This document shows, one piece after another, positions 16,812 through 40,468 of a DNA stretch of 64,000 nucleotides (position 1 is the first letter of the stretch; each line of letters opens with the position of its first letter). A model generated the notes under the pieces. That model did not search any database. It saw only the letters and a list, made by a program, of their open reading frames with translations, and had not been told where the DNA came from. The translations under genes and the position numbers were made by a program. Source of the stretch: Algoriphagus sp. (GTDB lineage: Bacteria > Bacteroidota > Bacteroidia > Cytophagales > Cyclobacteriaceae). The stretch lies in NCBI GenBank assembly GCA_036676605.1, contig JAKFCO010000011.1, positions 39,933 to 103,932 on the forward strand, read 5' to 3'.

Positions 16812-16827
16812 GAATGGAGGATTAGAA

Positions 16828-17894: not shown

Positions 17895-17920
17895 GAATTG
17901 AGAATTAGAAATGAAGAATT

Positions 17921-18088: not shown

Positions 18089-18145
18089 AAGACAAAACCC
18101 AATTCAGTAACGCAACAAATCAATTGCATTTGATAACCTATAATT

Positions 18146-20077: not shown

Positions 20078-20079
20078 AA

Positions 20080-21471: not shown

Positions 21472-21550
21472 CAGCCCATTTCGGTATAGTAGACAATTTT
21501 GGTTCCACTGGAAATGTTGCGAAAAACACCATAAATTTAAGCGATTTATA

Positions 21551-21696
21551 AAACACGAATTATCACGAATTAGTGAAATTGGAATCTGATTTTTCAAAAT
21601 GATTAACTTTTTAGGGGTGTTGTAAAAAAAGCATGCGTTTTTTAGGCCGGAACCTTGCAGCTAAAGAATTAGTGGAAATTCGTGAAATTCTTGTTT
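21551..21696. repeat. Imperfect inverted repeat pair (miniature element or scar)
   Basis: AAACACGAATTATCACGAATT at 21551 versus AATTCGTGAAATTCTTGTTT at 21677. Confidence 0.55.
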
Positions 21697-22058
21697 TTTT
21701 ATTTTTCCACACAAAAGCCAGTAGAACCTTCTTTGAAGAGCATCACTCCTAATTTCCTGCCACAATAGGTGGGGTCTGCTGAAAAACTCAGAAATTTCAA
21801 TGTATTAAAACCAGTCCAGATTGGCATTTGGATGGTTTTTTGATTTCAAGATCGCCTGGATTAGCTCTATGTCAATTAAATCTGTATTTAATCTACCTAT
21901 TTCCGCACAAGTGTGCTATTATTTCTATAAATACATCATAATCTTGTGATATTCCATTCTGAAAACTAATTATTTTTTTAAAAATTAAAATTATTATCAA
22001 ACTCATAATCAGACAGTTAAATACTCGAATCATTTATTTTTTATTTAACATATTTTTA

Positions 22059-22073
22059 TGGCAAACCATTTGG
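22059..22073 (+). promoter_or_regulatory. Candidate sigma54 -24/-12 promoter of gvpA
   Basis: TGGCAAACCATTTGG versus TGGCAC-N5-TTGC; correct spacing, G in place of C at -12; 70 nt upstream of the gvpA ATG. Confidence 0.55.
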
Positions 22074-22143
22074 TTAGTCCAATGGCAAGAGGTAAACCGT
22101 CCCTCATATTAAAGCACGGTATAACAATCTAATATCATATATC

Positions 22144-22350
22144 ATGGCAGTAGAAAAAACAAACGGTTCATCCAGCCTTGTAGAGGTGATCGACCGTATC
22201 CTCGACAAAGGTGTCGTAGTTGATGCATGGGTAAGAGTTTCATTGGTAGGTATCGAACTGCTTGCAATTGAAGCAAGGATAGTCGTTGCCTCTGTTGAAA
22301 CATACCTTAAGTATGCAGAAGCAATCGGATTAACTGCTAAAGCCGCATAA
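22144..22350 (+). CDS. gvpA: Major gas vesicle structural protein GvpA
   Basis: [56 protein letters not shown] is canonical GvpA. Confidence 0.98.
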
Positions 22351-22491
22351 GGCATTTTGCAGTTACGCAGTTATTTTTGCTAAAACATCCTTCCAGGTCA
22401 AATACCCGAAAGCATGATTTACCAAAAATTTCTCTTTTCTCCAGAATTTTTCCTTTTCTCCAAAAGTAAAATCGAAACAAAACCATTATAT

Positions 22492-23160
22492 ATGAATACC
22501 CAGCCTGAATTAAATATAGATGGTTTTTTTGAAAACATTATAAGCTCCTACGAAACCCGGATTCAAAAAATTCAAACTGCTTTCCAAGCATCAGAAATCA
22601 TTACGGAAACATCCCACTCCCTGTTCGACAATGTCCATAATTCCTTATACGAACTTAAAAAGGAAAGAGACATTTTAAATTCCAGGCTATGCGAAACCCT
22701 GGCAAAAAATGGTTCCCTGCGTAAAAAAGATTACAATACGATGATGTCGGGCATTCTCGGCGCACTTGACGAAAAGGAAAGAGAAGCCGAAAGCCGGTTT
22801 TTGACTTTTATTGAAGCCCAGAAAGAGAATGCCCAATCGCTTAAAAATAGCCTGTTGGACATCAAAGATATTACCTCCCAAGACAACTGCGAAAAAATCA
22901 CCATCATCAAAGAGCAACTTTCTCAGATTTCAAAACTGCAGGAAATGAGAAAGGAAACGGTAATGAAGACATTCATGGATTTCCAGCAAATGCATAACAG
23001 AATAATGGAATGTCTTGAAAACTTACTTGAAAAAGGCGATCACATTCTTATACATGATATAAAAAAGATTAAAGATCAAATAATTCAACCCCGTAGGACA
23101 AGTACCCTACGGAGTAAAGAAATCAACCCCGTAGGACTAGCATCCAACAGGATAAACTAA
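22492..23160 (+). CDS. Hypothetical all-helical protein in the gvp operon
   Basis: Coiled-coil pattern, KNGSLRKKDYNTMM motif; start moved to MNTQPEL. Confidence 0.7.
   Translation: MNTQPELNIDGFFENIISSYETRIQKIQTAFQASEIITETSHSLFDNVHNSLYELKKERDILNSRLCETLAKNGSLRKKDYNTMMSGILGALDEKEREAESRFLTFIEAQKENAQSLKNSLLDIKDITSQDNCEKITIIKEQLSQISKLQEMRKETVMKTFMDFQQMHNRIMECLENLLEKGDHILIHDIKKIKDQIIQPRRTSTLRSKEINPVGLASNRIN
23085..23137. repeat. REP-like unit: 15-bp direct repeat with hairpin
   Basis: TCAACCCCGTAGGAC at 23085 and 23123; CCGTAGG-8nt-CCTACGG hairpin at 23091-23112. Confidence 0.65.
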
Positions 23161-23204
23161 CACAGGTAATCAAATATTCATTAACCAAATTAGGAGATAA
23201 AAAA

Positions 23205-24392
23205 ATGGGACTAGCATCAGAAATGAAAAACTTGAGTGAAGATATACTTGCTTCATTCAAACAACGCATCAGGGAAAACGAAGAGCTTGTAACCGATGTG
23301 CAGAAAACCCTCGACGGTTTTCGCAAGGACCACCAGGAGATGGCCGCTGTTTTAAACGCCAATGCTTCAGCCCTTAGAAAAGGACTTGTACATGGGGAAA
23401 AAGAACGACTGAATACCTTCAATGAATTAATGACCGGGATTCATCGCACAATCGCCTCTATACAGAAAGAAGTGGTAGCAATTCAAACTTCCACCTTCAA
23501 TATGATAAATGAATTCACAACCGACAGAGCACAAATGGCTGACGAGTTGAAGAAATTCTTTGCACAGGGCAGGGCCGGCAGGATGCAAAACGAAAAAAAT
23601 AGGATAAGGGAATTTGATGCCCTCATGAAAAACATCAACCAAGATATTAAAAGTATCAACGATGAGGTTTTAACGATTTTAAAAAATACGAGCGACATGT
23701 TAGACAGGTTTGAAAAAGAGCATCTGGAAATGTCGGCTGAGCTTAGAGCAGAACTGAGTAAAAACCTGGCTGAAAGAGTTGAATATACCAGAACATTGCT
23801 GAATAGGTTTCAGAAAAGATTATCGGAGATCGGCAAAGAAAGTCAAAAGGTGGCTCAAAAGCTGAGGAAAGATCTTGCCAATGGCGAAATAGAAAGGATT
23901 AACGACTACAATGGTATAATGAAAGGAATCCATGTGGCGGTAAAAGGAATCCGCAAAGAAGTAAAGGACGTTCAAAAAGCCACTACCGGAATGCTTGGGG
24001 GTTTTTCGCAAGACAGAGGGCAGGCCTCGGCTGAGTGGAACAAGATGAAGGACTCCATTGCTCAATTAAGGAAAACAGGCGTTGTTACATCGTCTAAGGA
24101 GGTAGTCGGGAAAGCTGAAAAAAAAGGGGAAGTGAAAATAGAACCCCCGACTGAAGCAGTAAAGAAAATCCTGGTTGAAGTTCTGCCAAAAGTGGAGTCC
24201 AAACCAGTAGTACCGATGACACTGGAAGAGAAAATAATGACTTATATCAGCAAGCATCCCAAAGGGGTAAAAATTTCGGAAATGGAAGAACCACTGGGAG
24301 AAACACGGATGAAGCTTGGGTTTATCGCTAAAGGTTTACTGGATCAAGGGAAAGTCCAAAAAATGGATAATATTTATTTCCCCTTAAAATAG
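23205..24392 (+). CDS. GvpC-like helical repeat protein with C-terminal winged-helix-like domain
   Basis: Position between gvpA and gvpN; three long imperfect repeats E-x-E/N-R...LM..I...I..EV...T..ML..F; C-terminal LEEKIMTYISKHPKGVKISEM...GLLDQGKV. Confidence 0.6.
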   Translation: MGLASEMKNLSEDILASFKQRIRENEELVTDVQKTLDGFRKDHQEMAAVLNANASALRKGLVHGEKERLNTFNELMTGIHRTIASIQKEVVAIQTSTFNMINEFTTDRAQMADELKKFFAQGRAGRMQNEKNRIREFDALMKNINQDIKSINDEVLTILKNTSDMLDRFEKEHLEMSAELRAELSKNLAERVEYTRTLLNRFQKRLSEIGKESQKVAQKLRKDLANGEIERINDYNGIMKGIHVAVKGIRKEVKDVQKATTGMLGGFSQDRGQASAEWNKMKDSIAQLRKTGVVTSSKEVVGKAEKKGEVKIEPPTEAVKKILVEVLPKVESKPVVPMTLEEKIMTYISKHPKGVKISEMEEPLGETRMKLGFIAKGLLDQGKVQKMDNIYFPLK

Positions 24393-24488
24393 CATCCGGG
24401 TACTGAGCGAAGTCGAAGCGCTAAACCAGTAACCAATTAATGTGTTATATCCATTTCAAAATAAAAGGCCCTGACAAAAATAATCAGA

Positions 24489-24780
24489 TGTGCATTTTGT
24501 AGTGGAAAGGGAAAGATCCCTTTGATTTTACACTCCAATATCAGATTGCCTGGTAAGTAACGACAGGGGCAGGTTAAAATGGACGAACCCCTAAAAAAAT
24601 GTGTTTTTTTGTTCGGGCACAGGCAAAAACCCACTTGGCACCAGGGTTCCGTGTATCGTATGTGGAGGAAAGGGAAATAATTACTGCGAAAGCAATATAA
24701 AATGTACTCAATGCAAAGGAACGGGGAAATCAAGCGATGGCCTGCCATATTCCCGTTGCGGAGACAAAGGCTTAATTTGA
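24489..24780 (+). pseudogene. Frameshifted DnaJ-type zinc finger (CxxCxGxG repeat) protein
   Basis: CAFCSGKG, FCSGTG, CIVCGGKG, CTQCKGTG and degenerate motifs across different frames; start uncertain. Confidence 0.75.
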
Positions 24781-24782
24781 CA

Positions 24783-24986
24783 ATGGACAATGGATTATAC
24801 CCAATGAACAATACCGGAAACAAAATCAGGAAGAGTTTGCTGAAAAGACAAGAAGCATTAAATAGGTTTAAAGCCAGAAAGGAGGCCTTTTTTCTGGCTA
24901 AGGAACAAATAACAAAGGATATTGAGGAGGCCAGAAACATCTGGATAAACACATTGAAACTACTCCCCAAACAGGAATTTAATTAA
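24783..24986 (+). CDS. Small basic helical hypothetical protein upstream of gvpN
   Basis: In-operon ORF (start 24783 or 24804) ending 21 nt before gvpN. Confidence 0.5.
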   Translation: MDNGLYPMNNTGNKIRKSLLKRQEALNRFKARKEAFFLAKEQITKDIEEARNIWINTLKLLPKQEFN

Positions 24987-25007
24987 TGATTTATCAAACC
25001 ATCAACC

Positions 25008-25925
25008 ATGAGCAATAACAATGAAATGAACACCGTACTTGAACTAAGGCCAATGTCAAATTTTGTAGAAACCGATTACATTAAAGACATTACCAGCCGT
25101 GGGCTTACTTACATAAAAGCGGGATTCCCGGTACATTTCAGAGGCCCGTCAGGAACCGGGAAAACAACCGTGGCTATGCATCTGGCTAGTAAAATCGGAA
25201 GGCCGGTGGTCATAATTCATGGTGACGCCGAGTACAAAACTTCCGATCTAATTGGCAGCGAACAGGGATATAAATATAAAAAGCTGGACGATAAGTTTAT
25301 TCACTCTGTCCATAAATATGAGGAGAATATGTCAAAGCAATGGGTGAATAACCGTTTGACTATCGCTGTTAAAAACGGATTTACCCTTATTTACGATGAA
25401 TTTACACGCTCCCGTCCTGAAGCAAATAACATCCTGCTTCCCATCCTGCAGGAGAGAATGCTGAGCACATCGGCTACAAAAGAAGAGGATTACTACATGA
25501 AGGTGCATCCTGAATTCCGTGCCATCTTTACTTCAAATCCTGAAGAGTATGCCGGCGTTAACCGGACTCAGGATGCCCTTCGCGACAGGATGGTTACCAT
25601 GGACCTCGATCATTTCGATTTTGAAACCGAGTTACAAATTACCATGGCAAAATCTGACCTTTCACTAAAAGATACTGAAACAATAGTTAAAATTGTCAGA
25701 GGCTTGCGAGAATCGGGGAAAACCGAATTTGACCCGACGATCCGCGGTTCGATTATGATTGCAAAAACACTGGCAACTTTAGACACCACCCCTTCGGAAT
25801 CCAAAAGTATATTCAGAAAAATTTGTCAGGATATTCTCACTTCCGAAACGAGCCGGATTGGCTCAAAAACCAATCAGGAAAAGGTAAAGATCATTGTTGA
25901 TGAATTAATAGAACAATATATATAG
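25008..25925 (+). CDS. gvpN: Gas vesicle AAA+ ATPase GvpN
   Basis: GFPVHFRGPSGTGKT, YDEFTRSRPEANN, FTSNPEEYAGV, QDALRDR. Confidence 0.96.
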   Translation: MSNNNEMNTVLELRPMSNFVETDYIKDITSRGLTYIKAGFPVHFRGPSGTGKTTVAMHLASKIGRPVVIIHGDAEYKTSDLIGSEQGYKYKKLDDKFIHSVHKYEENMSKQWVNNRLTIAVKNGFTLIYDEFTRSRPEANNILLPILQERMLSTSATKEEDYYMKVHPEFRAIFTSNPEEYAGVNRTQDALRDRMVTMDLDHFDFETELQITMAKSDLSLKDTETIVKIVRGLRESGKTEFDPTIRGSIMIAKTLATLDTTPSESKSIFRKICQDILTSETSRIGSKTNQEKVKIIVDELIEQYI

Positions 25926-25972
25926 TATCACGACAAAACGCACCATCAACCCATCATCAAATCCAAAATATT

Positions 25973-26287
25973 ATGCCAATATCAAGTGCAATTAAAGGAC
26001 TTCAGAGCATTAAATCAATGCAAAATGTCGTTAAATCTGGCATTCCCAACAAGGAGGAATCAGATTTCATAAAATTGTATATGTATGAAAAAGAAAGAAC
26101 CCGGTTGAAGAGTGAAGAAATAAGGATTTTACTAAGGCTTGAGATCATTCAAAGCAGGTTAAAGGAGATCCAGAATTATAATGATGAAAAAGCAGGACAG
26201 ATGCAGGTTCCTGAACCGCAGGAGCTCAATCAAAAAGAAACAGTAAAGGTAAAATCTGATTTTAAAACAATGTCAATAAACTACTAA
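25973..26287 (+). CDS. Coiled-coil gas vesicle accessory protein (GvpV-like by position)
   Basis: Follows gvpN, coiled-coil core; family assignment positional only. Confidence 0.45.
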   Translation: MPISSAIKGLQSIKSMQNVVKSGIPNKEESDFIKLYMYEKERTRLKSEEIRILLRLEIIQSRLKEIQNYNDEKAGQMQVPEPQELNQKETVKVKSDFKTMSINY

Positions 26288-26300
26288 AAAACAATGTATT

Positions 26301-26600
26301 ATGGCAGAACCTCCCCATTCAATTAACGCGGCCGGCCTTGCCGATATTCTCGAAAGAGTACTCGATAAAGGGATCGTAATTGCAGGCGATATCAAGATAC
26401 AAATTGCTGATATTGATTTGCTGACCATAAAAATCAGATTGCTGGTTTGTTCAGTTGACAAGGCCATGGAGATGGGCATCAACTGGTGGCAGGAAGATAC
26501 CTATCTCTCTACCAAAGCCAGGGAAAAAGCGCTGATGGAACATCAAGAAACTTTGGAGGCCCGTTTGGAAAAACTTGAGGCCATTAGCAAACCAGCTTAA
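26301..26600 (+). CDS. gvpJ: GvpA/J family minor structural protein (GvpJ-type)
   Basis: LADILERVLDKGIVIAGDI...DLLTIKIRLLVCSVDKAMEMGINWW. Confidence 0.85.
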   Translation: MAEPPHSINAAGLADILERVLDKGIVIAGDIKIQIADIDLLTIKIRLLVCSVDKAMEMGINWWQEDTYLSTKAREKALMEHQETLEARLEKLEAISKPA

Positions 26601-26628
26601 TTTTAATGAGCTAATAATTATCAATAAA

Positions 26629-27147
26629 ATGGAAAACGATAAAAATAAAGAAAAAAAAGACGAAGCCGCTTTTGATCTTTTCGGACTTGGTGGTTTGTTC
26701 AAGGGCATCGAAAAACTGGTTGACCTTGCCGGAAAGCTCGAAGAAAAGGGTGGAATCAGCAAGGAAGGCGAGATCAATTTTGATCATATCAAAAAAGGCA
26801 TGAAAGGTGTTTATGGCTTTACCATCAACACGGCAGGCGGAGGTACCCCGAAAGTATCGACTTTCGGAAATATAAAAAAAACGCCCGAAGGGCCCAAAGT
26901 GGATGAAGAACGCGAGCCGATAACTGACCTCTTTGATGAAAAAACCGAAGTTGTGATTATTGCTGAAATGCCCGGAATAGAGGAAAGCGACATCAAAATT
27001 GATCTGAAGGAAGATATCCTTGAAATTTCGGCAGCCGGCAAAAACCGTACTTACCACAAAGAACTACTGCTTCCTTCAAAAGTAAGCAGTAAAAATTTAA
27101 AGCACAAATTTACAAATGGCATCCTTGAGATTCGGATAAAAAAATAA
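26629..27147 (+). CDS. Hsp20/alpha-crystallin family protein (GvpH-like)
   Basis: IAEMPGIEESDI, NGILEIRI; start moved to 26629. Confidence 0.85.
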   Translation: MENDKNKEKKDEAAFDLFGLGGLFKGIEKLVDLAGKLEEKGGISKEGEINFDHIKKGMKGVYGFTINTAGGGTPKVSTFGNIKKTPEGPKVDEEREPITDLFDEKTEVVIIAEMPGIEESDIKIDLKEDILEISAAGKNRTYHKELLLPSKVSSKNLKHKFTNGILEIRIKK

Positions 27148-27152
27148 ATGTT

Positions 27153-28106
27153 ATGGCACTGACCGGTTTAGATAGCAACGAACTTAAACTCATTCTTTTG
27201 GGGGGAAAAGGCGGTGTAGGAAAAACCGGCTGTGCAACTGCAATAGCCATTGAGCTATCAAAAACCTTCAAAACAATTCTTATCTCACCATATCCAGCAC
27301 ATTCAGTTTCTGACAGCCTGGGAAAATTCATCGGCTTTAAGCAACAGCCTGTGAAAGGGGTTAATAACCTTACTGCTATTGAAATTGCAGCAGAAGTAGC
27401 ATTTTCAACATTTAAAGAGCAAAACCAGGCCCAACTTGAAAAACTTTTTGATACATCTACAAACCTTGATCAGGAAGACACCGGGCAATTGATGGATGTC
27501 TCTATCCCCGGCATTGATGAAATAATGAGCTTCAAAATAATCACTGATTTTCTTGAAGAAGGGAAATACGACAAATTAATAGTTGATACAGCCCCTACCG
27601 GCCATGCACTACGACTATTTGCGTCGCCAAAGCTGCTGGATGAATGGATTAAAGTTGCCGCACGGATATGGTGGAAATACCGCTATATGGTTACCAGTTT
27701 TTCGGGTTCCTATTAACAGGATGAGGTGGACGCATTTTTATTCAGCCTGAAAAAAATGGTTAAAAGAATCCAAAACCTGTTGCGGGATAAAACCAAATGT
27801 GAATTTATCCCGGTTTGTATCCCCGAAGCGATGGCAATCATGGAAACGGGCAGGCTGCTTGCAAATCCCGGCACATCTGAAATAATTGCGCAGCAGATAA
27901 TCGTGAACAATGTAATGGTTTCGGATGATGGTGATTTTTGCAAAAAAATAAAGGCTGGTCAATTACCCTATTTACAAGAGATTAAAGAAACGTTTAGCAA
28001 TTTAAATATAGTTGAAGTACCAAAATTTACTGAGGAGATCAAAGGACTGGAAGCATTGAATCAATTAAGGATGAGTCTTTTTGGAGATAAACCAATTAAC
28101 CAATAA
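27153..28106 (+). pseudogene. ArsA/Get3-family ATPase with in-frame TAA at 27714-27716
   Basis: GGKGGVGKT, PGIDE, VDTAPTGH; frame continues after the stop; STDPAH motif altered to SPYPAH. Confidence 0.85.
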
Positions 28107-28119
28107 ACCATCAGCCAAA

Positions 28120-30273
28120 ATGAAAGACGAAATAATATTACGTGTAAAAGAAGCACCGGTAAAGGATGTTGGAAGGGCAATTGCCAGGATTGATCCAAAA
28201 GATATGAAGTTGATGGGCTTGGAAAGTGGCGACGTGATCGCTATTGAAGGCAAACGTGCCACGCCGGTTAAGATCATGCCTTGTTATCCCGAAGACAGGG
28301 ATAAGCGTATTATTCAGATTGATGGAATTACCAGAGAAAATGCTCAGGCTGGGGTTGATGAAAAAGTGAAGATCATTAAAACTACCTGCCGTCAGGCTTC
28401 AAAAATAAAACTCAAGCCCGATACAAAATCCGGTTCTTTATTCAAGGCCGATGACGCGAAATACATTGGTTCGCTCATCAATGGCCTTTCGGTAACAAAA
28501 GGCGATAAAGTAAGAGCCACCCTCTTTGGTTCCCGGTCGGTTAATTATACAGTAACCGGTACCAATCCGGACGGGGTGGTACTGATACACCCAAATACCA
28601 CCTTTCAGCTTGAATTGACGAAGCAAGAGGGTGAAAGCAAAAGTAAGGTTTCGTATGAAGACATCGGTGGACTTGGAAATCAGGTTCAACGCATCCGGGA
28701 GATGATAGAACTGCCCTTGAAGTATCCTGAAATTTTTGAACGTCTTGGTGTTCAGGCTCCCAAAGGCGTATTTCTATATGGCCCTCCGGGAACCGGGAAA
28801 ACGCTCATCGTTAGAGCAGTGGCCCATGAAACGGATGCCTATTTTATCAACATTTCCGGCCCGGAGATCATGGGAAAATTTTATGGGGAAAGTGAAGGCC
28901 GGATAAGGAAAATTTTTGAAGAGGCTCAGGCACGTGCACCTTCCATCATTTTTATCGATGAAATTGATGCTATTGCGCCCAAGCGGGAAGATATGGGCGG
29001 TGAAAAGCAGGTTGAAAAGCGTGTTGTAGCCCAACTATTATCGCTTATGGACGGATTGGAATCGAGGGGGAAGGTCATTGTAATTGGCGCAACCAATATT
29101 CCTAATTCCATTGATCCGGCGCTGAGAAGGCCGGGACGTTTTGATCGCGAAATTTCTATCGCTATTCCCGATAAAAAAGGCAGGCTGGAAATTCTTCACA
29201 TCCATACCAGAGGAATTCCCTTGTCGATGGATGTAGATATGGAAAAACTGGCGGAAATCACCCATGGTTTTGTGGGCGCCGATCTGGAAGCTTTAGCCAG
29301 GGAAGCCGCCATGACTGCTTTGCGGAAAATACTCCCGCAAATCGATTTCGAGATGGCTGAAATCCCTTACGAACTTTTGATGTCGCTCGAAGTAACCATG
29401 GATAACTTTTTTGACGCGATGAAAGAGGTGGAGCCATCGGCCATCAGGGAGGTTTTCGTGGAAGTGCCCAATGTGAAATGGGATGATGTTGGCGGCCTTG
29501 ATGAAATCAAAGAGGCTTTAAAGGAAACTGTGGAGTGGCCCCTTATATATGACGAACTGTTTAAAAAAGCCGATACCAAGCCTCCAAAGGGAATTATCCT
29601 TCACGGGAAACCCGGCACAGGCAAAACCTATCTTGCAAAAGCGCTCGCAAGCGAGAGTGGAGTTAATTTTATTTCTGTAAAAGGTCCGCAGATTTTAAGC
29701 CGCTACATCGGTGAATCGGAAAAAGGGGTCAGGGAACTCTTCAGAATGGCAAAACAGGCATCGCCTTGCATCTTGTTTCTGGACGAAATAGACAGCCTTA
29801 CCCCCAGGCGTAGTAACGACAGTTCAGGTTCCGGGGTAATCGAAAGGGTGATTGGCCAGTTCCTTACCGAAATGGATGGCATTGAAGACCTGAAAGGGGT
29901 GATTGTGCTGGCCGCCACCAACAGAATCGATTTAATTGACCCTGCTTTACTAAGAAGTGGCCGGTTTGATCTGATATTTGAATTGCCGTTACCCGATGTA
30001 AAAACCAGGGAAAAAATATTCGGCATCCATTCCCGGAATAAACCCCTTGACAAAAAAGTAAACCTGAACAAACTGGCTCTGAAAACAGAAAACCTCACAG
30101 GATCAGATATCGAATTTATTTGCCGTAAAGCGGCCATGTTTTCCATTCGCGAATTGATTGATAAAAACAGCGGAAAATCGAACGAAGTTATCGGCGAAAT
30201 CATCATCCTGGAGAGTCATTTCGAAGAAGCGATTAGGCTGGTATTACAGCAAAACGCAACGAAGAAAGGTTGA
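28120..30273 (+). CDS. CDC48/p97 family AAA+ ATPase
   Basis: N-domain plus two AAA modules (GPPGTGKT/IDEID, GKPGTGKT/LDEID), ALRRPGRFDRE. Confidence 0.95.
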   Translation: MKDEIILRVKEAPVKDVGRAIARIDPKDMKLMGLESGDVIAIEGKRATPVKIMPCYPEDRDKRIIQIDGITRENAQAGVDEKVKIIKTTCRQASKIKLKPDTKSGSLFKADDAKYIGSLINGLSVTKGDKVRATLFGSRSVNYTVTGTNPDGVVLIHPNTTFQLELTKQEGESKSKVSYEDIGGLGNQVQRIREMIELPLKYPEIFERLGVQAPKGVFLYGPPGTGKTLIVRAVAHETDAYFINISGPEIMGKFYGESEGRIRKIFEEAQARAPSIIFIDEIDAIAPKREDMGGEKQVEKRVVAQLLSLMDGLESRGKVIVIGATNIPNSIDPALRRPGRFDREISIAIPDKKGRLEILHIHTRGIPLSMDVDMEKLAEITHGFVGADLEALAREAAMTALRKILPQIDFEMAEIPYELLMSLEVTMDNFFDAMKEVEPSAIREVFVEVPNVKWDDVGGLDEIKEALKETVEWPLIYDELFKKADTKPPKGIILHGKPGTGKTYLAKALASESGVNFISVKGPQILSRYIGESEKGVRELFRMAKQASPCILFLDEIDSLTPRRSNDSSGSGVIERVIGQFLTEMDGIEDLKGVIVLAATNRIDLIDPALLRSGRFDLIFELPLPDVKTREKIFGIHSRNKPLDKKVNLNKLALKTENLTGSDIEFICRKAAMFSIRELIDKNSGKSNEVIGEIIILESHFEEAIRLVLQQNATKKG

Positions 30274-30690
30274 TAGAGAGGTTGATAAGTTGAAAAAAGG
30301 ATAAAATATGAAATATTCATTTGAAAATCTGGAAGTTTGGCAAACGTCAAGAAAACTGGTAAATGATATTTATCAGGTGATCTCCAATTTTCCACAGGAT
30401 GAAAAATTTGGATTAACCAGCCAACTTAGAAGAGTTTCAATATCTGTGAGCAGTAATATCGCAAAAGGAAGTACCCGATGTAGTAAAAAAGACCAATCAA
30501 GATTTTACGAAATTGCTTTTGGTAGTCTTATAGAAGTTTTAAATCAATTGATACTTGCTACTGATTTGAAATTTTTACAAGAAAACCAATTAACCACACT
30601 CAGGGCAAAAATTGATCCTATTGGAAGAATGTCGAATGGACTTTATCAATCAACCTATCAACTCATAAACAAACTAATAAACCCATCAAC
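30267..30690. repeat. Complementary short-repeat flanks around the four-helix-bundle gene
   Basis: AGGTTGAT x2 plus AAGTTGA at 30267-30293; ATCAACCTATCAACT...CCATCAAC at 30649-30690. Confidence 0.65.
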
Positions 30691-30694
30691 ATAA
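30308..30694 (+). CDS. Four helix bundle protein (23S rRNA IVP-like family)
   Basis: FENLEVWQ, FPQDEKFGLTSQLRRVSISVSSNIAKG, AFGSLIEV. Confidence 0.92.
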   Translation: MKYSFENLEVWQTSRKLVNDIYQVISNFPQDEKFGLTSQLRRVSISVSSNIAKGSTRCSKKDQSRFYEIAFGSLIEVLNQLILATDLKFLQENQLTTLRAKIDPIGRMSNGLYQSTYQLINKLINPST

Positions 30695-30700
30695 AAAAGC

Positions 30701-31741
30701 ATGACAACAAAAGGAATATACATCTATGGGATTGTGCCGAACTTTTACAGTACGGATATGTTCAGATCATTGGAAAATTCAGGGGTTTATGCCATCCCCT
30801 TGCAAAACATATCTGCCATTGTTTCCGATAGGGAGAGTGCTCACATCGATTATTTAGACAGGGAAACCCTGGGATATTTGCTGGTTCATCATCAGAAAAC
30901 GATTGAAGGGCTCATGGAGAAAGGATTCAACATGCTTATCCCCATGCGGCTCGGTACGATTGTAAACTCAAAGGAAGAGGTTATTAAAATACTGGCAAAC
31001 GGCCATGATTTAATTATTGACACCCTGAAGAAAATTGAATACCTGACAGAAATTGACTTGGTGGTTACCTGGGCAGATTTTCCTGATCTCCTCACAGAGA
31101 TCGCTGGCCATCCCGAAATCATAGCAATGAAAGATAATATCCTGAAAAAGACAGACACACTTTCACAAATTGACCAGATGAAAGTAGGGATACTGGTTCA
31201 GTCAAAATTAAAAGAAAAAAACACAAAGGTTGAATTGAATATCCTGGATTCGTTGGCATCAATCAGTCTCGATATAAAAACACATGAGGTGATGAATGAC
31301 CAGATGGTAACCAATTCCGCGCTTCTTATTGACAGGAATAAAAAAGCAAAATTTGAACAGGTAATTGACCAGCTTGATGAAGAATACAAGGGGTTGTTGA
31401 ACTTCAAATTGGTCGGTCCTCTGCCGTGTTATAGTTTTTATACTATTGAAGTTAAAGAGCTGAATCCAGAGCATGTGGCACAGGCAAAAAAAGAACTTGA
31501 GCTGAGAGAAGAAACTTCGGAATCTGAAATAAAAAAAGCATATCTGAAAAAAGCAAAATTATTTCATCCCGATGCACATCAGGACAATGGCGACGAAGAA
31601 AACTTCAGCAGGATCAATAAGGCCTATCATACATTGCTTGATTATTCAGCGGGGGCAAGGCAATCATCGGAAGTGAATTTAATCTCTCTGGCAAAAGAAA
31701 AAGTGATTGAAAATTTGATTCTGGTAAAAATAAAGGAATAA
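30701..31741 (+). CDS. GvpL/GvpF family protein fused to a C-terminal J-domain
   Basis: GIYIYGI, VHHQKTIE, IPMRLGT, VGPLPCYSF; then EIKKAYLKKAKLFHPDA...INKAYHTL. Confidence 0.9.
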   Translation: MTTKGIYIYGIVPNFYSTDMFRSLENSGVYAIPLQNISAIVSDRESAHIDYLDRETLGYLLVHHQKTIEGLMEKGFNMLIPMRLGTIVNSKEEVIKILANGHDLIIDTLKKIEYLTEIDLVVTWADFPDLLTEIAGHPEIIAMKDNILKKTDTLSQIDQMKVGILVQSKLKEKNTKVELNILDSLASISLDIKTHEVMNDQMVTNSALLIDRNKKAKFEQVIDQLDEEYKGLLNFKLVGPLPCYSFYTIEVKELNPEHVAQAKKELELREETSESEIKKAYLKKAKLFHPDAHQDNGDEENFSRINKAYHTLLDYSAGARQSSEVNLISLAKEKVIENLILVKIKE

Positions 31742-31742
31742 T

Positions 31743-32516
31743 ATGCAACGCGACGGAAAGTACATTTATTGCATCATTGCATCGGATTACGACATCAATA
31801 TCGGGCCGATAGGAATAGGCGGACGTGGCGACCTGGTCTCCACCATCGGTTTCGATGGCTTGTGTATGGTGGTGAGCGACCATCCGCTCAGCAGGTTCGT
31901 AGTCAATCCCGAAAACATGCTGGCGCACCAAAAGGTGATCGAAATGGTGATGAAGGAATTCAGAAGTGTGATCCCAATCAGGTTTGGTACCATTGCGGCA
32001 ACCCCCGATGAAATACGGAACCTGCTGAACCGAAGATACAGCGAGTTTATGGAATTGCTCAGGCAGTTCGAAAACAAGGTAGAGCTCAATGTGAGGGGAA
32101 CCTGGAAAAACATGGGAATGATTTACAAGGAGATCGACAAGGAACATGCTGAGCTTCAAAAAATCAGAGCTGAAATAGAGAAAATTGATGATAAGGAAGA
32201 AAGAAACCTGAAAATTGCTGAAGCCGGAAATCTTGTAGCAAATGCGCTGATTGAAAAGAAAACGGAGGAGACAGAAACGATTATCGATGCTTTCCGCAAA
32301 TCGGTGTTCGAGTATAAACATAATAAAACGAGCGGAGATGCCATGTTTATTAATACCGCATTTCTTATGAACAGCGGCAGGGAGGTCGAATTCGACAACA
32401 TCATGACCGACATTGGCGCCAGATACGAGAATCGGAGCGATTTTGTATATACAGCCCCGTTGCCGATTTTTAATTTCATTGACCTGAAAATATTCCCCGA
32501 AAAATGGGAATTATAA
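31743..32516 (+). CDS. GvpL/GvpF family protein
   Basis: GKYIYCII, AHQKVIE, IPIRFGT, TAPLPIFNF. Confidence 0.92.
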   Translation: MQRDGKYIYCIIASDYDINIGPIGIGGRGDLVSTIGFDGLCMVVSDHPLSRFVVNPENMLAHQKVIEMVMKEFRSVIPIRFGTIAATPDEIRNLLNRRYSEFMELLRQFENKVELNVRGTWKNMGMIYKEIDKEHAELQKIRAEIEKIDDKEERNLKIAEAGNLVANALIEKKTEETETIIDAFRKSVFEYKHNKTSGDAMFINTAFLMNSGREVEFDNIMTDIGARYENRSDFVYTAPLPIFNFIDLKIFPEKWEL

Positions 32517-32538
32517 AATAATTTATATAACAACTGTT

Positions 32539-33321
32539 ATGAGCAACGAACTGGAAATACCGAAAGAAGGAAAATACATTTATGGGATTATCAGGCATGC
32601 AGGCCCCTTAGACTATGGTCCGATTGGCATGGGTAGACGGGCCGACTTGGTTTATGGGATCAATTTCAAAGATATCAGCGCCATCGTCAGTAATTCCCCG
32701 ATCATTCAATATGAAGCCAGAAGAGTGAACATGATCACCCATGAAAATGTACTTGAGGAAGTTATGAAACAATTTACGGTTCTTCCTGTTCGGTTTTCAA
32801 CCATCTCCGAGCATAATGATGACGCCGGAATCTTAAGAATCCTTGAAACAGAATATAAAAAATTCGATAGCCTGCTTAGTCAGATGGAAGGCAAGAAAGA
32901 ACTTGGACTCAAGGTACTTGCGCAGGAAGCTGCGATCTATGAAAGCATCATTGAAAAACATGATGAAATCAGGTCACTCAGAGGAAAATTGATAAACCTT
33001 CCTGCCGATAAAACCCATTACCAGCGCATGAAAATCGGCGAAATGGTCGCGGAAGCGCTTAAAAAGGAGACGGAAAATTATAAAAACAGTATCCTCGATG
33101 TTCTAAGCCCACTTACAGATGATGTGAAGATAAACGACAACTATGGAGAAATGATGATTCTCAATGCTGCATTTCTTGTTAAAAACACATCTGAACCCGT
33201 GTTTGACAAAGCGGTGAACGATTTGGATGAAAAATATGGCCGCTTTATGACCTTCAAATACGTAGGGACATTGCCACTATATAATTTTGTTAGCCTTGTA
33301 ATTAACACGAAAGGAGTTTAA
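32539..33321 (+). CDS. GvpL/GvpF family protein
   Basis: GKYIYGII, THENVLEEVM, LPVRFST, VGTLPLYNFV. Confidence 0.92.
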   Translation: MSNELEIPKEGKYIYGIIRHAGPLDYGPIGMGRRADLVYGINFKDISAIVSNSPIIQYEARRVNMITHENVLEEVMKQFTVLPVRFSTISEHNDDAGILRILETEYKKFDSLLSQMEGKKELGLKVLAQEAAIYESIIEKHDEIRSLRGKLINLPADKTHYQRMKIGEMVAEALKKETENYKNSILDVLSPLTDDVKINDNYGEMMILNAAFLVKNTSEPVFDKAVNDLDEKYGRFMTFKYVGTLPLYNFVSLVINTKGV

Positions 33322-33322
33322 T

Positions 33323-33559
33323 ATGTTTTTAATCGATAGCATACTGTTAGCCCCTTTAAAAGGAATTATTTTTATCGCAGAGAAAGTCAATGAGGTGATC
33401 AAGAAAGAAACGTCGGATGAAGGCACCATTAAAGAAAGGTTGATGGCATTGCAGCTGAAATTTGAGATGGATGAAATTGACGAAGAAGAATATGACAAAA
33501 GAGAAGATGAGATATTGAAATTACTGGAAAATATCAGAGCGGAGAAACAAAACAAATAG
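33323..33559 (+). CDS. gvpG: Gas vesicle protein GvpG
   Basis: MFLIDSILLAPLKG...LQLKFEMDEIDEEEYDKREDEIL. Confidence 0.92.
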   Translation: MFLIDSILLAPLKGIIFIAEKVNEVIKKETSDEGTIKERLMALQLKFEMDEIDEEEYDKREDEILKLLENIRAEKQNK

Positions 33560-33579
33560 TGAAATAAAAAAAAGAAAAA

Positions 33580-33852
33580 ATGAGTAATATTATCGATGTT
33601 AAAAAAGCAGTGGTTAAGTTCCTGAAAGAGAACATTAACGGTTATGACATAACGGTTATAAAAATTGAAAAAGTAAAAGAAATTTGGAATTCAGTGGCAG
33701 AAGTATATGAAGACGATTCATTTTTAAAATCAATGAACCTTCCGCCGAAAAAGGTACGGCTGTTCTATTCGGTCAGGATGGATGATAAACTTGAAATTAC
33801 ATCCTTCAAACGACATGATTCATTTGAAGGAATGGAAAGCACTGACGAGTAA
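33580..33852 (+). CDS. GvpO/GvpR-like gas vesicle protein
   Basis: W..VAEVYE...Y.V.MD....ITSFKR pattern resembles GvpO; in-operon. Confidence 0.6.
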   Translation: MSNIIDVKKAVVKFLKENINGYDITVIKIEKVKEIWNSVAEVYEDDSFLKSMNLPPKKVRLFYSVRMDDKLEITSFKRHDSFEGMESTDE

Positions 33853-33874
33853 TATTAATTAACGAATTCGTGTC

Positions 33875-34672
33875 ATGATAAATGATCTGATATATGTTTA
33901 TTGCCTATCATCACGCAGCCCTCTCGGGCTCGTACCCGACATGGAGTCCAGTGGCTTGGAATCTCTTATGTTCGATGATTTTTACGTGATCGTTAAATAT
34001 GTTTCTGAAAGTGAATTCTCTGAAGAAAACTTCAAAAAGAATTTATCAGATATTCTGTGGTTGGAATTAAATGCGCGGGAGCATATCAGGGTAATCACCG
34101 CGATCATGGAATATAGTACCGTAATCCCTTTTAAATTTGGCACTATCTATAATACTAAAGCCAGTTTGAAAAAATTCATCACGGATTATTCTGATTCATT
34201 GATCGAAAACTTCCATCATATCAAAGAAAAAGAAGAGTGGTCGGTTAAAATTTATTGCGATCGTAAAACACTGTGCGAACAAATTGACGAATTGAGCGAG
34301 GAAGCTGCTGCGCTGGAAAAGCAGATCATGGCAAGTTCGCCTGGGAAAGCATTTCTTTTAAAAATAAAAAAAACAGCCCTGATCGAAAACGAGATGGACA
34401 GGATTTGTAAGAACTACGGACAGGAGTATTATGATGAATTTAAAAATCTGAGCGAATCAACCGACCTCAACAACCTTCTTCCGAAAGAGTTTACCGAAAG
34501 AGAGTTTACCATGATCCTTAATGCCAGCTTTCTTGTAAGTAAAAACAAAGTGGCTGATTTTATTAGTACAGTCGACACACTGAGTAAAAAGGATGGAAAT
34601 TCCGGCATTTTTATTGAAGCAACCGGCCCCTGGCCACCATTTAGTTTTATCTCCATTAAAGAAAAACAATAA
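33875..34672 (+). CDS. GvpL/GvpF family protein
   Basis: LIYVYCL, EHIRVIT, IPFKFGT, TGPWPPFSF. Confidence 0.92.
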   Translation: MINDLIYVYCLSSRSPLGLVPDMESSGLESLMFDDFYVIVKYVSESEFSEENFKKNLSDILWLELNAREHIRVITAIMEYSTVIPFKFGTIYNTKASLKKFITDYSDSLIENFHHIKEKEEWSVKIYCDRKTLCEQIDELSEEAAALEKQIMASSPGKAFLLKIKKTALIENEMDRICKNYGQEYYDEFKNLSESTDLNNLLPKEFTEREFTMILNASFLVSKNKVADFISTVDTLSKKDGNSGIFIEATGPWPPFSFISIKEKQ

Positions 34673-34875
34673 TGCACAATAATGTAATCGACCGGTCTAA
34701 AGACATTACCATACTTGAATTGCTCGACAGAGTATTGAACAAAGGGGTCATCCTCAGCGGCGATATTGTAATTTCAGTAGCAGATGTCGACCTGGTATAT
34801 GTTGGCGTTAAGTTAATGTTAAGCTCAGTTGAAACAATGGAGCAATTAAGGTCCGGAAAGTCAGTAATTGTGTAG
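34672..34875 (+). CDS. GvpA/J family small protein (GvpS/GvpM-type)
   Basis: ILELLDRVLNKGVILSGDIVISVADVDLVYVGVKLMLSSVET. Confidence 0.88.
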   Translation: MHNNVIDRSKDITILELLDRVLNKGVILSGDIVISVADVDLVYVGVKLMLSSVETMEQLRSGKSVIV

Positions 34876-34877
34876 AC

Positions 34878-35633
34878 ATGGAAAAGATTATTTATTCCAT
34901 ATTATCCGTAAAAAGAAATCCTGAGAAGTTAAATGCTCTGTTGGTTGGGATGAAGGGCATTTCGGGTTCTGACTTATGTGCTGTTTCCTTTGATGAAATT
35001 ACTGCGGTTGTAAGCGATATTAATAGAACCAATTTAATCGCAGATAGATCCAATGCCATTGAATATGCAGGGGTGATCGAAAACCTTGCGCAACAATTTA
35101 CGGTTCTTCCCATGCGATATGGTTCCATAATGGAATCAACCGGATCAATTATTAAAATGCTCGAAAGAAATTATCATGAATTTCAACAAAATCTTCAGAA
35201 AGTTGAAAACAAGCGTGAATTCGGGCTAAAGATCTTTTGTGATTCCGAAAAATTACAGGCAGAACTGAGGGCAAAATCAGAGACCCATACCACTACACCT
35301 GCCAAACATGCCCCGGAAATCAAAAATTCAGTATACAGGGATTGGGTGAATAAAAAACTTAAGGAACATAGGCTTGAGGAATTGCTGCTAACATACGTTG
35401 ATTCGGTTATTGTAAAGATCACTGGATACCTTGACCGATTGAACGCGGTCAATAAATTCAAAAAAATGGCGACTGCTACGAATATAATCGATGCGGTTTT
35501 TTTACTTGATAAGGAGCGGAAAGATGCTTTGATTCAGGCGGTTGAAATTTTACAAAACCAATATCCAGGGCTAAACTTTGTCCTGACCGGGCCCTGGCCT
35601 CCGTATAATTTTGTGGAAATCAATATAAAGTAA
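34878..35633 (+). CDS. GvpL/GvpF family protein
   Basis: LPMRYGS, LTGPWPPYNFV. Confidence 0.88.
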   Translation: MEKIIYSILSVKRNPEKLNALLVGMKGISGSDLCAVSFDEITAVVSDINRTNLIADRSNAIEYAGVIENLAQQFTVLPMRYGSIMESTGSIIKMLERNYHEFQQNLQKVENKREFGLKIFCDSEKLQAELRAKSETHTTTPAKHAPEIKNSVYRDWVNKKLKEHRLEELLLTYVDSVIVKITGYLDRLNAVNKFKKMATATNIIDAVFLLDKERKDALIQAVEILQNQYPGLNFVLTGPWPPYNFVEINIK

Positions 35634-35641
35634 TCAGCACG

Positions 35642-35986
35642 ATGAGTGAAAATAAAATATTATTTAATACCGGATCGCTTGATGAGCTTTCGGAGGAGAT
35701 CGGGAAACTAACAAACAATGAAGAGTCCAAGCTAAAGTTAGGCCCAGACAATGCTGATTCCGGGCTGGCAAAACTGGTATTAACCCTGGTTGAACTCATT
35801 CGTAAATTGATTGAAAAGCAAGCCATGCGCAGAGTTGACGGCGGATCATTGACTGAAGATGAGATTGAACGGCTCGGCGAAACATTAATGAAACTTGAGC
35901 TGAAAATGGAAGAGCTGAAAAAGCACTTTAACCTCAACGACCGCGACTTAAACATCAATCTCGGTCCATTGGGCGATTTAATGTAA
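35642..35986 (+). CDS. gvpK: Gas vesicle protein GvpK
   Basis: GLAKLVLTLVELIRKLIEKQAMRR...IERLG...DLNINLGPLG. Confidence 0.95.
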   Translation: MSENKILFNTGSLDELSEEIGKLTNNEESKLKLGPDNADSGLAKLVLTLVELIRKLIEKQAMRRVDGGSLTEDEIERLGETLMKLELKMEELKKHFNLNDRDLNINLGPLGDLM

Positions 35987-36003: not shown

Positions 36004-37641
36004 ATGAAAAAGGATGACAAATCAGAAGCAGCAATCCTACGCCAAAAGGCGGAACAAGAATTAATCATTGCTAACAAAGAACCTCACTCTCAAAACGAGT
36101 ACAAGAAAGCAAAGCAAGCACTTCTCCGATCGGAGAAGAATTTCCGTCGTTCAATTTCAGAATCTCCTTTGGGCATACGTATTGTTTCTGTCGATGGAAA
36201 AATAATTTATTCCAATAAAGCCTTCCTTGATATTTATGGATTCAACAGCCTTGAAGAAATTGAAAGTATACCAGCAATAAATCTACACACTCCAGAAAGT
36301 TATGCGAAACATCAGGAAAGAAAAGAGAAAAGAAAAAATGGACATGAGGTATTTGATTATGAGATAAGTATTATATGTAAAAACGCGGAAATCCGCCATG
36401 TAAAAGTTTGGAGAAAAGAAGTTCTGTGGAATGGGATCAAGCATTATCAGGTAATTAATCTAAATATTACGGAACAAAAGAAGCTAATCATAGATCTGAT
36501 GGCAGCCAAAGAACACGCCGAAGAAAGCGACAGGCTGAAATCTGCATTCCTGGCCAATGTGAGTCACGAAATACGTACTCCCATGAATGGCATTCTGGGT
36601 TTTGCCGAAATACTTAAAGAACCAAAGTTAACAGGTAAAGAGCAGCAAGAGTATATCAGAATTATTGAGAAAAGCGCTGCCCGTATGCTCAATATCATCA
36701 ACGATATTGTTGATATTTCGAAAATAGAATCGGGCCTGATGAAAGTTAATGCGAAGGAGTCGAATGTAAACGAGCAAATCGAACACATTTATACCTTCTT
36801 CAAACCGGAGATTGAAGGGAAAGGAATGCAGTTTTTCTTTAAAAACAGCTTGCCGTTAAAAGAAGCCATCCTAAAAACAGACCACGAGAAAGTCTATGCC
36901 ATTCTCACCAACCTGGTTAAAAATGCAATTAAATTCAGCGATAAAGGTTCAATCGGATTGGGGTATGAGAAAAATGGGGAATACTTTGAGTTTTTTGTAA
37001 AAGACACCGGCATCGGTATTCCTAAAGACAGACAAAAAGCTATTTTTGACCGTTTTGTCCAGGCCGACATCAGCGATAAAAGAGCTTTTCAGGGAGCAGG
37101 ATTGGGATTATCCATTTCGAAAGCTTATGTGGAAATGCTGGGTGGCAAAATTTGGGTAGAAAGCGAAGTGAGTAAAGGCTCAATATTTTATTTTACCATT
37201 CCTTATAATGCAGAATTGGAAGAAAAAAATGTCATTCAGAATGTTATTTTGCCTGAAGGAGCAGATAATCAGATTAAAAACCTGAAAATATTAATTGCCG
37301 AAGACGATGAATTATCGGCAATTATTCTTGGCAATATAGTTCGACTATACGGCAAAGAAGTCATGAAAGCAGGAACCGGTGTGGAAGCGGTTGAAGCTTG
37401 CCGCAATAACCCTGACATCGATTTGGTTCTGATGGATATTAAAATGCCCGAAATGGACGGAGATGAAGCCACCAGACAAATACGTCAATTTAACAAAGAT
37501 GTGGTTATTATTGCCCAAACAGCTTTTGCACTGACTGGAGACCAGGAAAAGACAATAGCGGCAGGATGCAATGATTATATTTCAAAACCCATTAAGAAAG
37601 ATAAAATAATGGAGTTAATGAAGAAATATTTCCAAAAATAG
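36004..37641 (+). CDS. PAS-HisKA-HATPase-REC hybrid sensor kinase
   Basis: FLANVSHEIRTPMNG, NLVKNAIKF, GAGLGLS, LMDIKMP. Confidence 0.93.
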   Translation: MKKDDKSEAAILRQKAEQELIIANKEPHSQNEYKKAKQALLRSEKNFRRSISESPLGIRIVSVDGKIIYSNKAFLDIYGFNSLEEIESIPAINLHTPESYAKHQERKEKRKNGHEVFDYEISIICKNAEIRHVKVWRKEVLWNGIKHYQVINLNITEQKKLIIDLMAAKEHAEESDRLKSAFLANVSHEIRTPMNGILGFAEILKEPKLTGKEQQEYIRIIEKSAARMLNIINDIVDISKIESGLMKVNAKESNVNEQIEHIYTFFKPEIEGKGMQFFFKNSLPLKEAILKTDHEKVYAILTNLVKNAIKFSDKGSIGLGYEKNGEYFEFFVKDTGIGIPKDRQKAIFDRFVQADISDKRAFQGAGLGLSISKAYVEMLGGKIWVESEVSKGSIFYFTIPYNAELEEKNVIQNVILPEGADNQIKNLKILIAEDDELSAIILGNIVRLYGKEVMKAGTGVEAVEACRNNPDIDLVLMDIKMPEMDGDEATRQIRQFNKDVVIIAQTAFALTGDQEKTIAAGCNDYISKPIKKDKIMELMKKYFQK

Positions 37642-37671: not shown

Positions 37672-37815
37672 ATACCCTACAATGCTGAACTGGAAGAAAA
37701 ATTGTTGTCAAAAATGTTGTCTCGACTGATAGAGCTGATAATTAGATTAAAATGCTTGAAACGGAAGGATATGAAGCCCCCCAGACAAATCCGACAATTT
37801 AATAAAGGCCTGGTT
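37672..37815 (+). repeat. Degenerate partial duplicate of the preceding kinase 3' region
   Basis: ATACCCTACAATGCTGAACTGGAAGAAAAA resembles 37196-37230; CCAGACAAATCCGACAATTTAATAAAG resembles 37471-37498. Confidence 0.65.
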
Positions 37816-37842
37816 AAAGAACAAAGCTAAAAACCTTTCACA

Positions 37843-40452: not shown

Positions 40453-40468
40453 GAATGGAGAATTTAAA

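Follow-up and report, generated by a model that had tools for sequence, protein, structure and literature searches.

Gas-vacuolate bacteria include Meniscus glaucopis, placed in the Prolixibacteraceae by the NCBI taxonomy, and Pelodictyon species. The closest gene clusters described, those of Pelodictyon (Chlorobium) luteolum and Polaribacter irgensii, associate arsA homologues and hsp20 with gvpNLFGJKM and carry four to five L/F copies; the gvp-linked ArsA was described as a two-domain protein of about 600 aa (Castillo & Saier 2010, PMC2963123). A cluster of this type is present in a 64,000-nucleotide stretch of DNA from Algoriphagus sp. (assembly GCA_036676605.1, contig JAKFCO010000011.1, positions 39,933 to 103,932), referred to below as the window. 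Its five L/F genes recall those of the Pelodictyon and Polaribacter clusters, whereas its ArsA homologue, like that of its relatives, belongs to a single-domain form of about 316 aa. By 2010 the cluster type had already been recorded from genomes, and many metagenome-assembled genomes (MAGs) carry it; it is a known type, uncharacterised experimentally. What is new here is its occurrence in Algoriphagus via transfer between orders.

We consider it highly probable that the window carries a horizontally acquired gas-vesicle island (positions 18497–35986) of the green sulfur/lake-Bacteroidales type, which now resides in a variable region by the 3′ end of comM. The original prediction had proposed, from the gas vesicle genes it recognized, that the organism gained buoyancy control by horizontal transfer, and five independent lines of evidence (the GvpN tree, the discordance between RpoB and GvpN, distribution, synteny and composition) now support a horizontal gain of the genes. 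GvpN was found in none of nine other Algoriphagus genomes and in 13 of 401 genomes of the host order, none of which exceeds 61% identity to the window's protein. By comparison, GvpN is 80–98% identical in at least 80 species-level genomes, almost all of these being stratified-lake MAGs that carry the label Bacteroidales, Prolixibacteraceae or Lentimicrobiaceae. The prediction had allowed that it would fail if the cluster proved common and already characterised in the family. Common it is not, with GvpA in 6 of 301 Cyclobacteriaceae genomes and a different, compact cluster in five of the family, although the type itself had been on record since 2010.

Setting the GvpN phylogeny against a host marker, a check put forward at the outset, gave discordant results. 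RpoB of six Bacteroidota MAG hosts is 68–71% identical to that of the window's host, as against 82–83% for members of its family and 95% for congeners; for GvpN, the same six MAG hosts reach 92–96%, as against 55–60% within the family. In the GvpN tree, the window's sequence is nested in a clade of lake MAGs (Bacteroidales/Prolixibacteraceae), several supported nodes down from its base, and a long, fully supported branch parts this clade from the GvpN of five Cyclobacteriaceae genomes. A phylum-wide sample yielded GvpN 80–84% identical to the window's in one family of small genomes. Since the FMO protein is present in all four tested genomes of that family, and in three more from two related families with more distant GvpN, these genomes are those of green sulfur bacteria. 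Three FMO-bearing genomes have the gene order of the island including hsp20–arsA–cdc48, and two of them have the gvpF-DnaJ gene as well. Together, these data provide good support for horizontal acquisition of the island from a gene pool of anoxic lake layers comprising Bacteroidales and green sulfur bacteria. Among the plasmids of PLSDB there is no carrier of such an island, the best GvpN match there being 47%.

Some entries of the comparison list require comment. A MAG labelled Neomarinimicrobiota, whose RpoB is 53% identical to that of the window's host and to all others, has the same island with a GvpN 95% identical; here either the island crossed phyla or the contig was binned wrongly. Two further labels in the list, Eubacteriales and Chitinophaga pinensis, seem to stem from errors in labelling or binning. 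A 5-kb MAG contig (L019) is 91% identical to the window up to gvpJ. Aligned with positions 22589–27713 it is a mosaic, synonymous divergence (dS) being about 0.04–0.24 from the first helical gene to gvpJ and 0.7–1.3 in hsp20 and arsA, a pattern suggestive of recombination among variants of the island.

In alignments with 80 related loci, nucleotide homology extends from about 18500 to 35986, for most MAG loci ending at gvpK, and gene order is unchanged in more than 60 MAG loci. Because the homology begins at about 18500, the conserved unit includes the sensor kinase and activator genes upstream of gvpA; delimited by these alignments, the island measures 17.5 kb. Its GC content is 39.7% compared to 42.3% for the genome (4.6th percentile), and its tetranucleotide distance lies in the top 3%. 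The native ComM encoded to its left shows 91.5% amino acid identity with three congeners and, in clustering at 90% identity or more, groups solely with Algoriphagus proteins. The host is therefore an Algoriphagus, in agreement with the "Cyclobacteriaceae-like" genome seen at first reading. Synteny with the three congeners covers msbA and comM and ends at position 16814; genus-level matches are found again from about 45742. The congener homologues of the genes on the right side lie about 140–150 kb from comM, the right side of the window being rearranged by comparison.

The interval between these native segments contains three diverged copies of the comM 3′ end. The tails are 66–80% identical to each other over the first 50 nt, and the other two are 77% and 81% identical to the first over 81 nt; comparison with the tails of the congeners did not reveal which one is native. 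Each tail is followed by a small gene of DNA-binding type: an intact ORF6N gene, a 55-aa relic ORF (17921–18088) and a frameshifted ORF6N copy, respectively. Direct repeats (16756–17476 and 40403–41226, spaced by about 23.65 kb) flank the island. This arrangement looks like the outcome of repeated insertion at the comM 3′ end. Between the relic ORF and the island lies a fragment encoding 108 aa of a coiled-coil/HisKA protein (18150–18476), which resembles the start of the hybrid kinase gene found past gvpK (76% over 80 nt). The latter, homologous in few loci only (L065, L067, L090), is acquired DNA but no constant part of the island. A REC-domain relic follows it at 37672–37816. The fragment and this relic are rearrangement debris at the island edges.

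The window is part of a 120.8-kb contig in a 4.64-Mb genome (completeness 99.99%, contamination 0.49%). Fourteen independent Logan contigs from several runs carry the order comM–ORF6N–two small ORFs–kinase–activator. Since all fourteen contain it, the junction between comM and the island is no assembly artefact, which answers the concern, raised with the prediction, that the flanking genes might belong to a chimeric contig. Farther to the right, positions 49867–60189 hold a gene for a sigma54 activator, kdpA, kdpB and, downstream, further ORFs. A DNA search of three congeners found no counterpart of these genes, which makes the stretch a second block specific to the strain.

Table 1. Features of the island and of its surroundings (positions in the window).
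Feature	Position	Strand	Basis and remarks
comM/yifB, native	15273–16811	+	TIGR00368, 655 bits; last gene syntenic with other Algoriphagus
comM tail repeats (family D3)	16762–16842, 17845–17925, 40403–40483	+	Three diverged comM 3′ ends
ORF6N-domain gene after comM	16828–17733	+	PF10543; not at that site in congeners
Left edge of acquired DNA: second comM tail, relic ORF, fragment	17845–18476	+	Repeats D3, D6
REC-PAS-HisKA-HATPase sensor kinase, first gene of conserved island	18497–20077	+	Pfam
NtrC-type sigma54-dependent response regulator (REC–Sigma54_activat–HTH_8)	20080–21471	+	Pfam, E 7e-60
Putative enhancer (upstream activating sequence) palindrome CCGCACAAGTGTGC	21903–21916	+	About 155 nt upstream of the −24 element
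Sigma54-type −24/−12 promoter TGGCAAACCATTTGG (predicted)	22059–22073	+	GG-N8-TTG[CGT]
Conserved gvpA leader element AGAGGTAAACCGTCCCTC-N-AAGCACGGT, 33 nt	22088–22120	+	Two interleaved stems
gvpA, major shell protein	22144–22350	+	PF00741, 59 bits (cut-off 25)
All-helical 222-aa protein in gvpC position	22492–23160	+	No Pfam/NCBIfam match; conserved in 73 loci
395-aa helical protein	23205–24392	+	Weak ApoLp-III and phasin matches; found in 78 loci
Small ORF 5′ of gvpN	24702–24986	+	Poorly conserved; only about 60 aa at the C-terminal end kept
gvpN, AAA+ ATPase	25008–25925	+	TIGR02640 equivalog, 350 bits (cut-off 266.8)
104-aa coiled-coil protein (orf104)	25973–26287	+	Conserved in both cluster types
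gvpJ-like GvpA paralogue	26301–26600	+	PF00741, 62.6 bits
Hsp20/alpha-crystallin protein, 172 aa by relatives	26629–27147	+	PF00011; NF041800, 139 bits
ArsA/Get3-like ATPase, split	27153–28106	+	In-frame TAA at 27714–27716, giving about 187 and 116 aa
Cdc48/VAT-type double-ring AAA+ unfoldase	28114–30273	+	CDC48_N, CDC48_2, two AAA domains
Four-helix-bundle gene (23S rRNA intervening sequence/bAvd-like)	30308–30694	+	PF05635, TIGR02436
GvpF/L with C-terminal J-domain	30701–31741	+	PF06386 and PF00226; 346 aa in 55 loci
Two GvpF/L genes	31743–32516, 32539–33321	+	PF06386
gvpG	33323–33559	+	PF05120, 69 bits
Divergent GvpO-like protein (orf90)	33580–33852	+	PF05800, 15.4 bits (below the 25-bit cut-off)
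GvpF/L	33875–34672	+	PF06386
GvpS/M-like GvpA paralogue	34672–34875	+	PF00741, 56.2 bits
GvpF/L	34878–35633	+	PF06386
gvpK, final gene of conserved island	35642–35986	+	PF05121, 116 bits
PAS-HisKA-HATPase-REC hybrid kinase	36004–37641	+	Pfam; absent from congeners
Third comM tail and frameshifted, decayed ORF6N copy (40469–41226)	40403–41226	+	Repeats D1–D4

The gas vesicle genes named in the original prediction (gvpA, gvpN, gvpK, gvpG, two A/J paralogues and five L/F genes) were all recovered by hidden Markov model scans with Pfam and NCBIfam (Table 1). GvpA matches solved shell proteins over its full length (8GBS, E 4e-33; 7R1C, E 2.5e-24) and is 94–99% identical across MAG loci; the whole genome contains exactly three matches to PF00741. 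The PF06386 (five), PF05120 and PF05121 matches all exceed the cut-offs, E-values for the five GvpL/F proteins ranging from 1e-46 to 3e-60. The gene proposed as gvpO-like, orf90, matches PF05800 weakly over model positions 17–88 of 94; 23 of 24 relatives also match weakly (best E 1.4e-4), and a profile search of the PDB with the family returned noise only. All genes are co-oriented as claimed, but the claim of open frames throughout does not hold for the split ArsA/Get3-like gene. Hsp20, ArsA, Cdc48, the fusion to DnaJ, the gene for a four-helix bundle and the regulators (18497–21471) went unmentioned in the prediction. Its statement that no system has been characterised in this lineage stands as far as the searchable literature shows: no paper was found there on gas vesicles in Algoriphagus or Prolixibacteraceae, on a Bacteroidota gas vesicle gene cluster or on Meniscus glaucopis, and mentions of gas vesicles together with Cdc48, Cyclobacteriaceae or Algoriphagus were incidental, none concerning such a system.

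The two regulatory genes at the start of the island keep their place in the MAG loci. The sensor kinase is 61–81% identical in 39 of them, its position unchanged. The activator is 73–83% identical in the MAG loci that have it beside gvpA (among the 40 best matches; a single weak match, at 34%, is a different regulator). An rpoN gene was found in the genome. In 27 of 40 promoter regions, namely those of the window and 26 MAG loci, the sequence GG-N8-TTG[CGT] precedes the leader motif by 31–33 nt, or by 41 nt in a single locus; chance expectation for this element is about 1% per region. The window's −12 element reads TTGG instead of TTGC, as it does in several relatives. A CGCAC/CGCGT-N4-GTGCG/ACGCG palindrome is found at equal distance in 26 of 26 aligned MAG promoters. 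With an activator, rpoN, a −24/−12 promoter and an enhancer all predicted, the gvp island has the makings of a sigma54/enhancer-binding-protein operon.

The conserved leader of gvpA is the most novel point of the island. Fifty-three instances of the motif were collected (one in the window, 52 in MAG loci), all upstream of a gvpA copy, tandem copies included. Pairing holds in 92% of the cells of the two stems, with compensatory changes at three pairs. Out of 500 shuffles, 1 attained the covariation score and 3 the count of further pair types, in an alignment whose columns are mostly invariant. No Rfam family matches the leader. The interleaved stems are suggestive of an H-type pseudoknot. Since the motif is repeated before each tandem gvpA copy, it would act on RNA rather than on transcription initiation. 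That it represents a new pseudoknot RNA controlling translation or stability of the shell-protein mRNA is possible, if somewhat doubtful; it might respond to a ligand or to a protein of the island.

The genes at 22492–23160 and 23205–24392 had been taken to include a GvpC-like one. This assignment was not upheld: neither protein matches the GvpC family PF01304, which has 33-residue repeats, the repeats here being of about 60 and 163 aa. Both are all-helical proteins encoded at the position of gvpC, and GvpC analogues by position only. The first gene was listed as an ORF from 22414; relatives and independent gene calls start it at 22492. The AlphaFold2 model of its 222-aa product has four long helices (predicted local distance difference test, pLDDT, 61). 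A 60-aa module is common to this protein and its 395-aa neighbour (hhalign E 1e-4). The latter combines two very long helices, an internal duplication of 163 aa, a disordered linker and a C-terminal winged-helix-like domain (AlphaFold2 pLDDT 75, and self-similarity), and is a candidate functional analogue of GvpC. As for the other small genes, orf104 had no family match in Pfam and NCBIfam scans; it has a homologue of 32% identity in the compact cluster of a Cyclobacteriaceae relative. Of about 60 related islands, just 7 (including L026, L043, L059, L078 and L098) have the four-helix-bundle gene, and its site varies: it can follow cdc48 or gvpG, or separate arsA from cdc48. The genome contains eight paralogues of this gene. 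It behaves like a small mobile insert, found sporadically, and is no constant part of the island.

Genes for Hsp20, an ArsA homologue and a Cdc48-type ATPase sit between gvpJ and the gvpF genes, in the window as in more than 55 MAG loci and in the green sulfur genomes. The Cdc48-like protein matches Thermoplasma VAT (5G4F) over its full length with an E-value of 7e-217; for the N-terminal half of the ArsA homologue, the nearest solved structures are Get3 and ARSA1. In 63 aligned MAG copies of arsA, the position of the window's TAA is a residue codon, and 62 loci have a single reading frame of about 316 aa. CAG is the commonest codon at this site, followed by CAA (13 copies), AAA (11) and GAA (3); TAA is one base change away from the last three (27 of 63 copies) and two from CAG. 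An assembly error was rejected as the source of the stop codon, the identical split being present in five independent contigs. Recoding was thought unlikely, as TAA is a single change from codons of relatives and other carriers have likewise lost arsA or have it in pieces. Probably, the window's arsA is a pseudogene. Elsewhere, the MAG islands L073 and L086 gave no arsA match, L035 matched in the C-terminal part alone, and the green sulfur genome G844 (L141) has the gene in two pieces (231 and 107 aa). Since arsA is missing or broken in these other carriers, it looks dispensable, as its natural disruption in the window also suggests; clusters of this type seem to have lost the Get3-like ATPase repeatedly.

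Every island gene has a ratio of nonsynonymous to synonymous substitution rates (dN/dS) of 0.03–0.25, and all lengths but that of arsA match those of relatives. To judge from its genes, the island is essentially complete and probably functional, and production of vesicles by this Algoriphagus is likely. In the scheme that we propose, the REC-PAS kinase would phosphorylate the adjacent NtrC-type activator, which would bind the palindrome and open the sigma54 promoter, giving a gvpA transcript that presumably begins with the structured leader. GvpA and its GvpJ/GvpS paralogues would then build a gas-permeable protein shell with GvpF/L, GvpG, GvpK, the GvpO-like protein and the GvpN ATPase. The two long-helix proteins encoded downstream of gvpA may form a coat or brace for the shell, the part played by GvpC in other systems, and Hsp20, the Cdc48/VAT-type ATPase and the J-domain GvpF may handle aggregation-prone shell proteins. 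The Get3-like ATPase, evidently dispensable, would have been lost by nonsense mutation.

Several observations weigh against an acquired and working island. Scans of ORFs from 16.8 to 45.7 kb, not exhaustive for the small ones, turned up no integrase, recombinase or other mobility gene. No sampled donor is close, dS being 0.4–3 for full-length MAG islands; therefore, either the transfer did not happen recently or the donor lineage is missing from the sample. The roles of the helical proteins and chaperones are proposed from position and family, and regulated buoyancy would be a plausible outcome. The arsA gene is broken, the region 22121–22143 lacks the AGGAG (TAGGAGATTAAAA-like) element that most MAG loci have just before the gvpA start codon, and the intergenic region between activator and gvpA measures 672 nt compared to about 255 nt in MAG loci. 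The TAGGAGATTAAAA-like element of the MAG loci is itself unusual for Bacteroidota. From the broken arsA, the missing AGGAG and the long spacer it follows that the island could be heading for decay. Taken further, it would be a relic, acquired but no longer forming vesicles, with arsA as the first gene lost; the fixation of the nonsense codon in several independent assemblies and the truncated kinase and REC fragments at both edges would fit. We regard this as unlikely, as the other 20 or so genes are full length under the dN/dS values given above, promoter, enhancer and leader are kept, and the absence or splitting of arsA in other carriers, a green sulfur bacterium included, implies that its loss need not disable the system.

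Acquisition itself faces weaker competition. If the Bacteroidota ancestor had possessed two ancient gvp cluster types that were then differentially lost, this Algoriphagus could have kept one by vertical inheritance. High dS to the sampled islands agrees with this, as does the divergence of the less constrained island proteins (GvpF5 47–73%, histidine kinase 61–81%), which is on the order of that of RpoB (68–71%). Yet such descent needs losses in nine of nine other congeners, in about 98% of the family and in every other member of the order that was sampled; GvpN, moreover, is nested deep in the Bacteroidales clade, and the island lies, with atypical composition, in an insert between comM-tail repeats that sets it apart from its congeners. 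Vertical inheritance is thus very improbable. A Bacteroidales contig joined to or binned with the Algoriphagus genome, an idea invited by nearest relatives that all belong to another order and by the clearly mislabelled Eubacteriales and Chitinophaga pinensis bins of the comparison, is scarcely credible given genus-conserved genes on both sides of the island in one 120.8-kb contig, the 14 Logan contigs spanning comM, ORF6N and the island kinase and activator, and the completeness and purity of the assembly.

The island is a well-documented example of how an entire organelle operon has passed from one order to another together with a sensor, an activator, a promoter and a leader of its own, from a donor gene pool that can be identified as the bacteria of the anoxic layer of stratified lakes, green sulfur bacteria included. 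In themselves, gvp genes in Bacteroidota and their horizontal spread are unsurprising, and this is a fairly ordinary case of buoyancy-gene transfer between distant bacteria. Algoriphagus, if this organism is culturable, is much easier to work with than the Bacteroidales carriers, which are uncultured, and could serve to test the Hsp20/Cdc48/J-domain module, the helical proteins that replace GvpC and the gvpA leader.

Compared with known systems, the window shares GvpA with the gas vesicles of Anabaena/Dolichospermum and Bacillus megaterium but lacks a GvpC homologue and GvpR/T/U, and has extra chaperone genes. In Serratia sp. ATCC 39006, gvp regulation reportedly involves the NtrC-like GvrA together with GvrB and GvrC. 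Serratia and the window both encode a sigma54-type enhancer-binding protein and a kinase with the gvp genes, while gene order and accessory genes differ. Five other Cyclobacteriaceae from three genera (G067, G110, G112, G235 and G282; loci L014–L018) carry a compact cluster of about 6 kb in the order gvpK-A-N-x-x-J-arsA-F-G-F-S, with an intact single-domain arsA. It has gvpK, A, N, J, arsA, F, G and S in common with the window, as well as homologues of orf104 and orf90, but no hsp20, cdc48 or DnaJ fusion, only two to three GvpF, and a GvpN 55–60% identical to the window's. Its upstream motif also differs, a conserved AAGGGnnTCCCTT palindrome being found upstream of gvpA. The compact clusters adjoin large multi-kinase genes and response regulators.

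In the green sulfur genomes G844, G802 and G974, gene order is like that of the window over both halves of the cluster: gvpA–two helical genes–gvpN–coiled-coil gene–gvpJ–hsp20–arsA–cdc48, followed by gvpF-DnaJ–gvpF–gvpF–gvpG–gvpO-like–gvpF–gvpS–gvpF–gvpK. G844 and G802 are the closer ones (GvpN 80–83%, GvpA 96–97%, Cdc48 72–80%), G974 being more distant (66%, 88% and 62%, respectively). These carriers are phototrophs, whereas the window's host belongs to an aerobic-type genus of Cytophagales. The window has a single gvpA, their clusters three or four. It further differs from green sulfur/Pelodictyon-type clusters by its broken arsA and by the co-oriented kinase/sigma54-activator pair directly upstream, and it has a gvpA leader motif that the green sulfur clusters lack. 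The islands of lake Bacteroidales/Prolixibacteraceae MAGs (L019–L098) have flanks unlike the window's, arsA intact in 62 loci, mostly an AGGAG before gvpA, and often tandem gvpA copies; with 70–91% nucleotide identity over 18.5–36.0 kb, they resemble the window in regulators, promoter, enhancer palindrome and leader motif.

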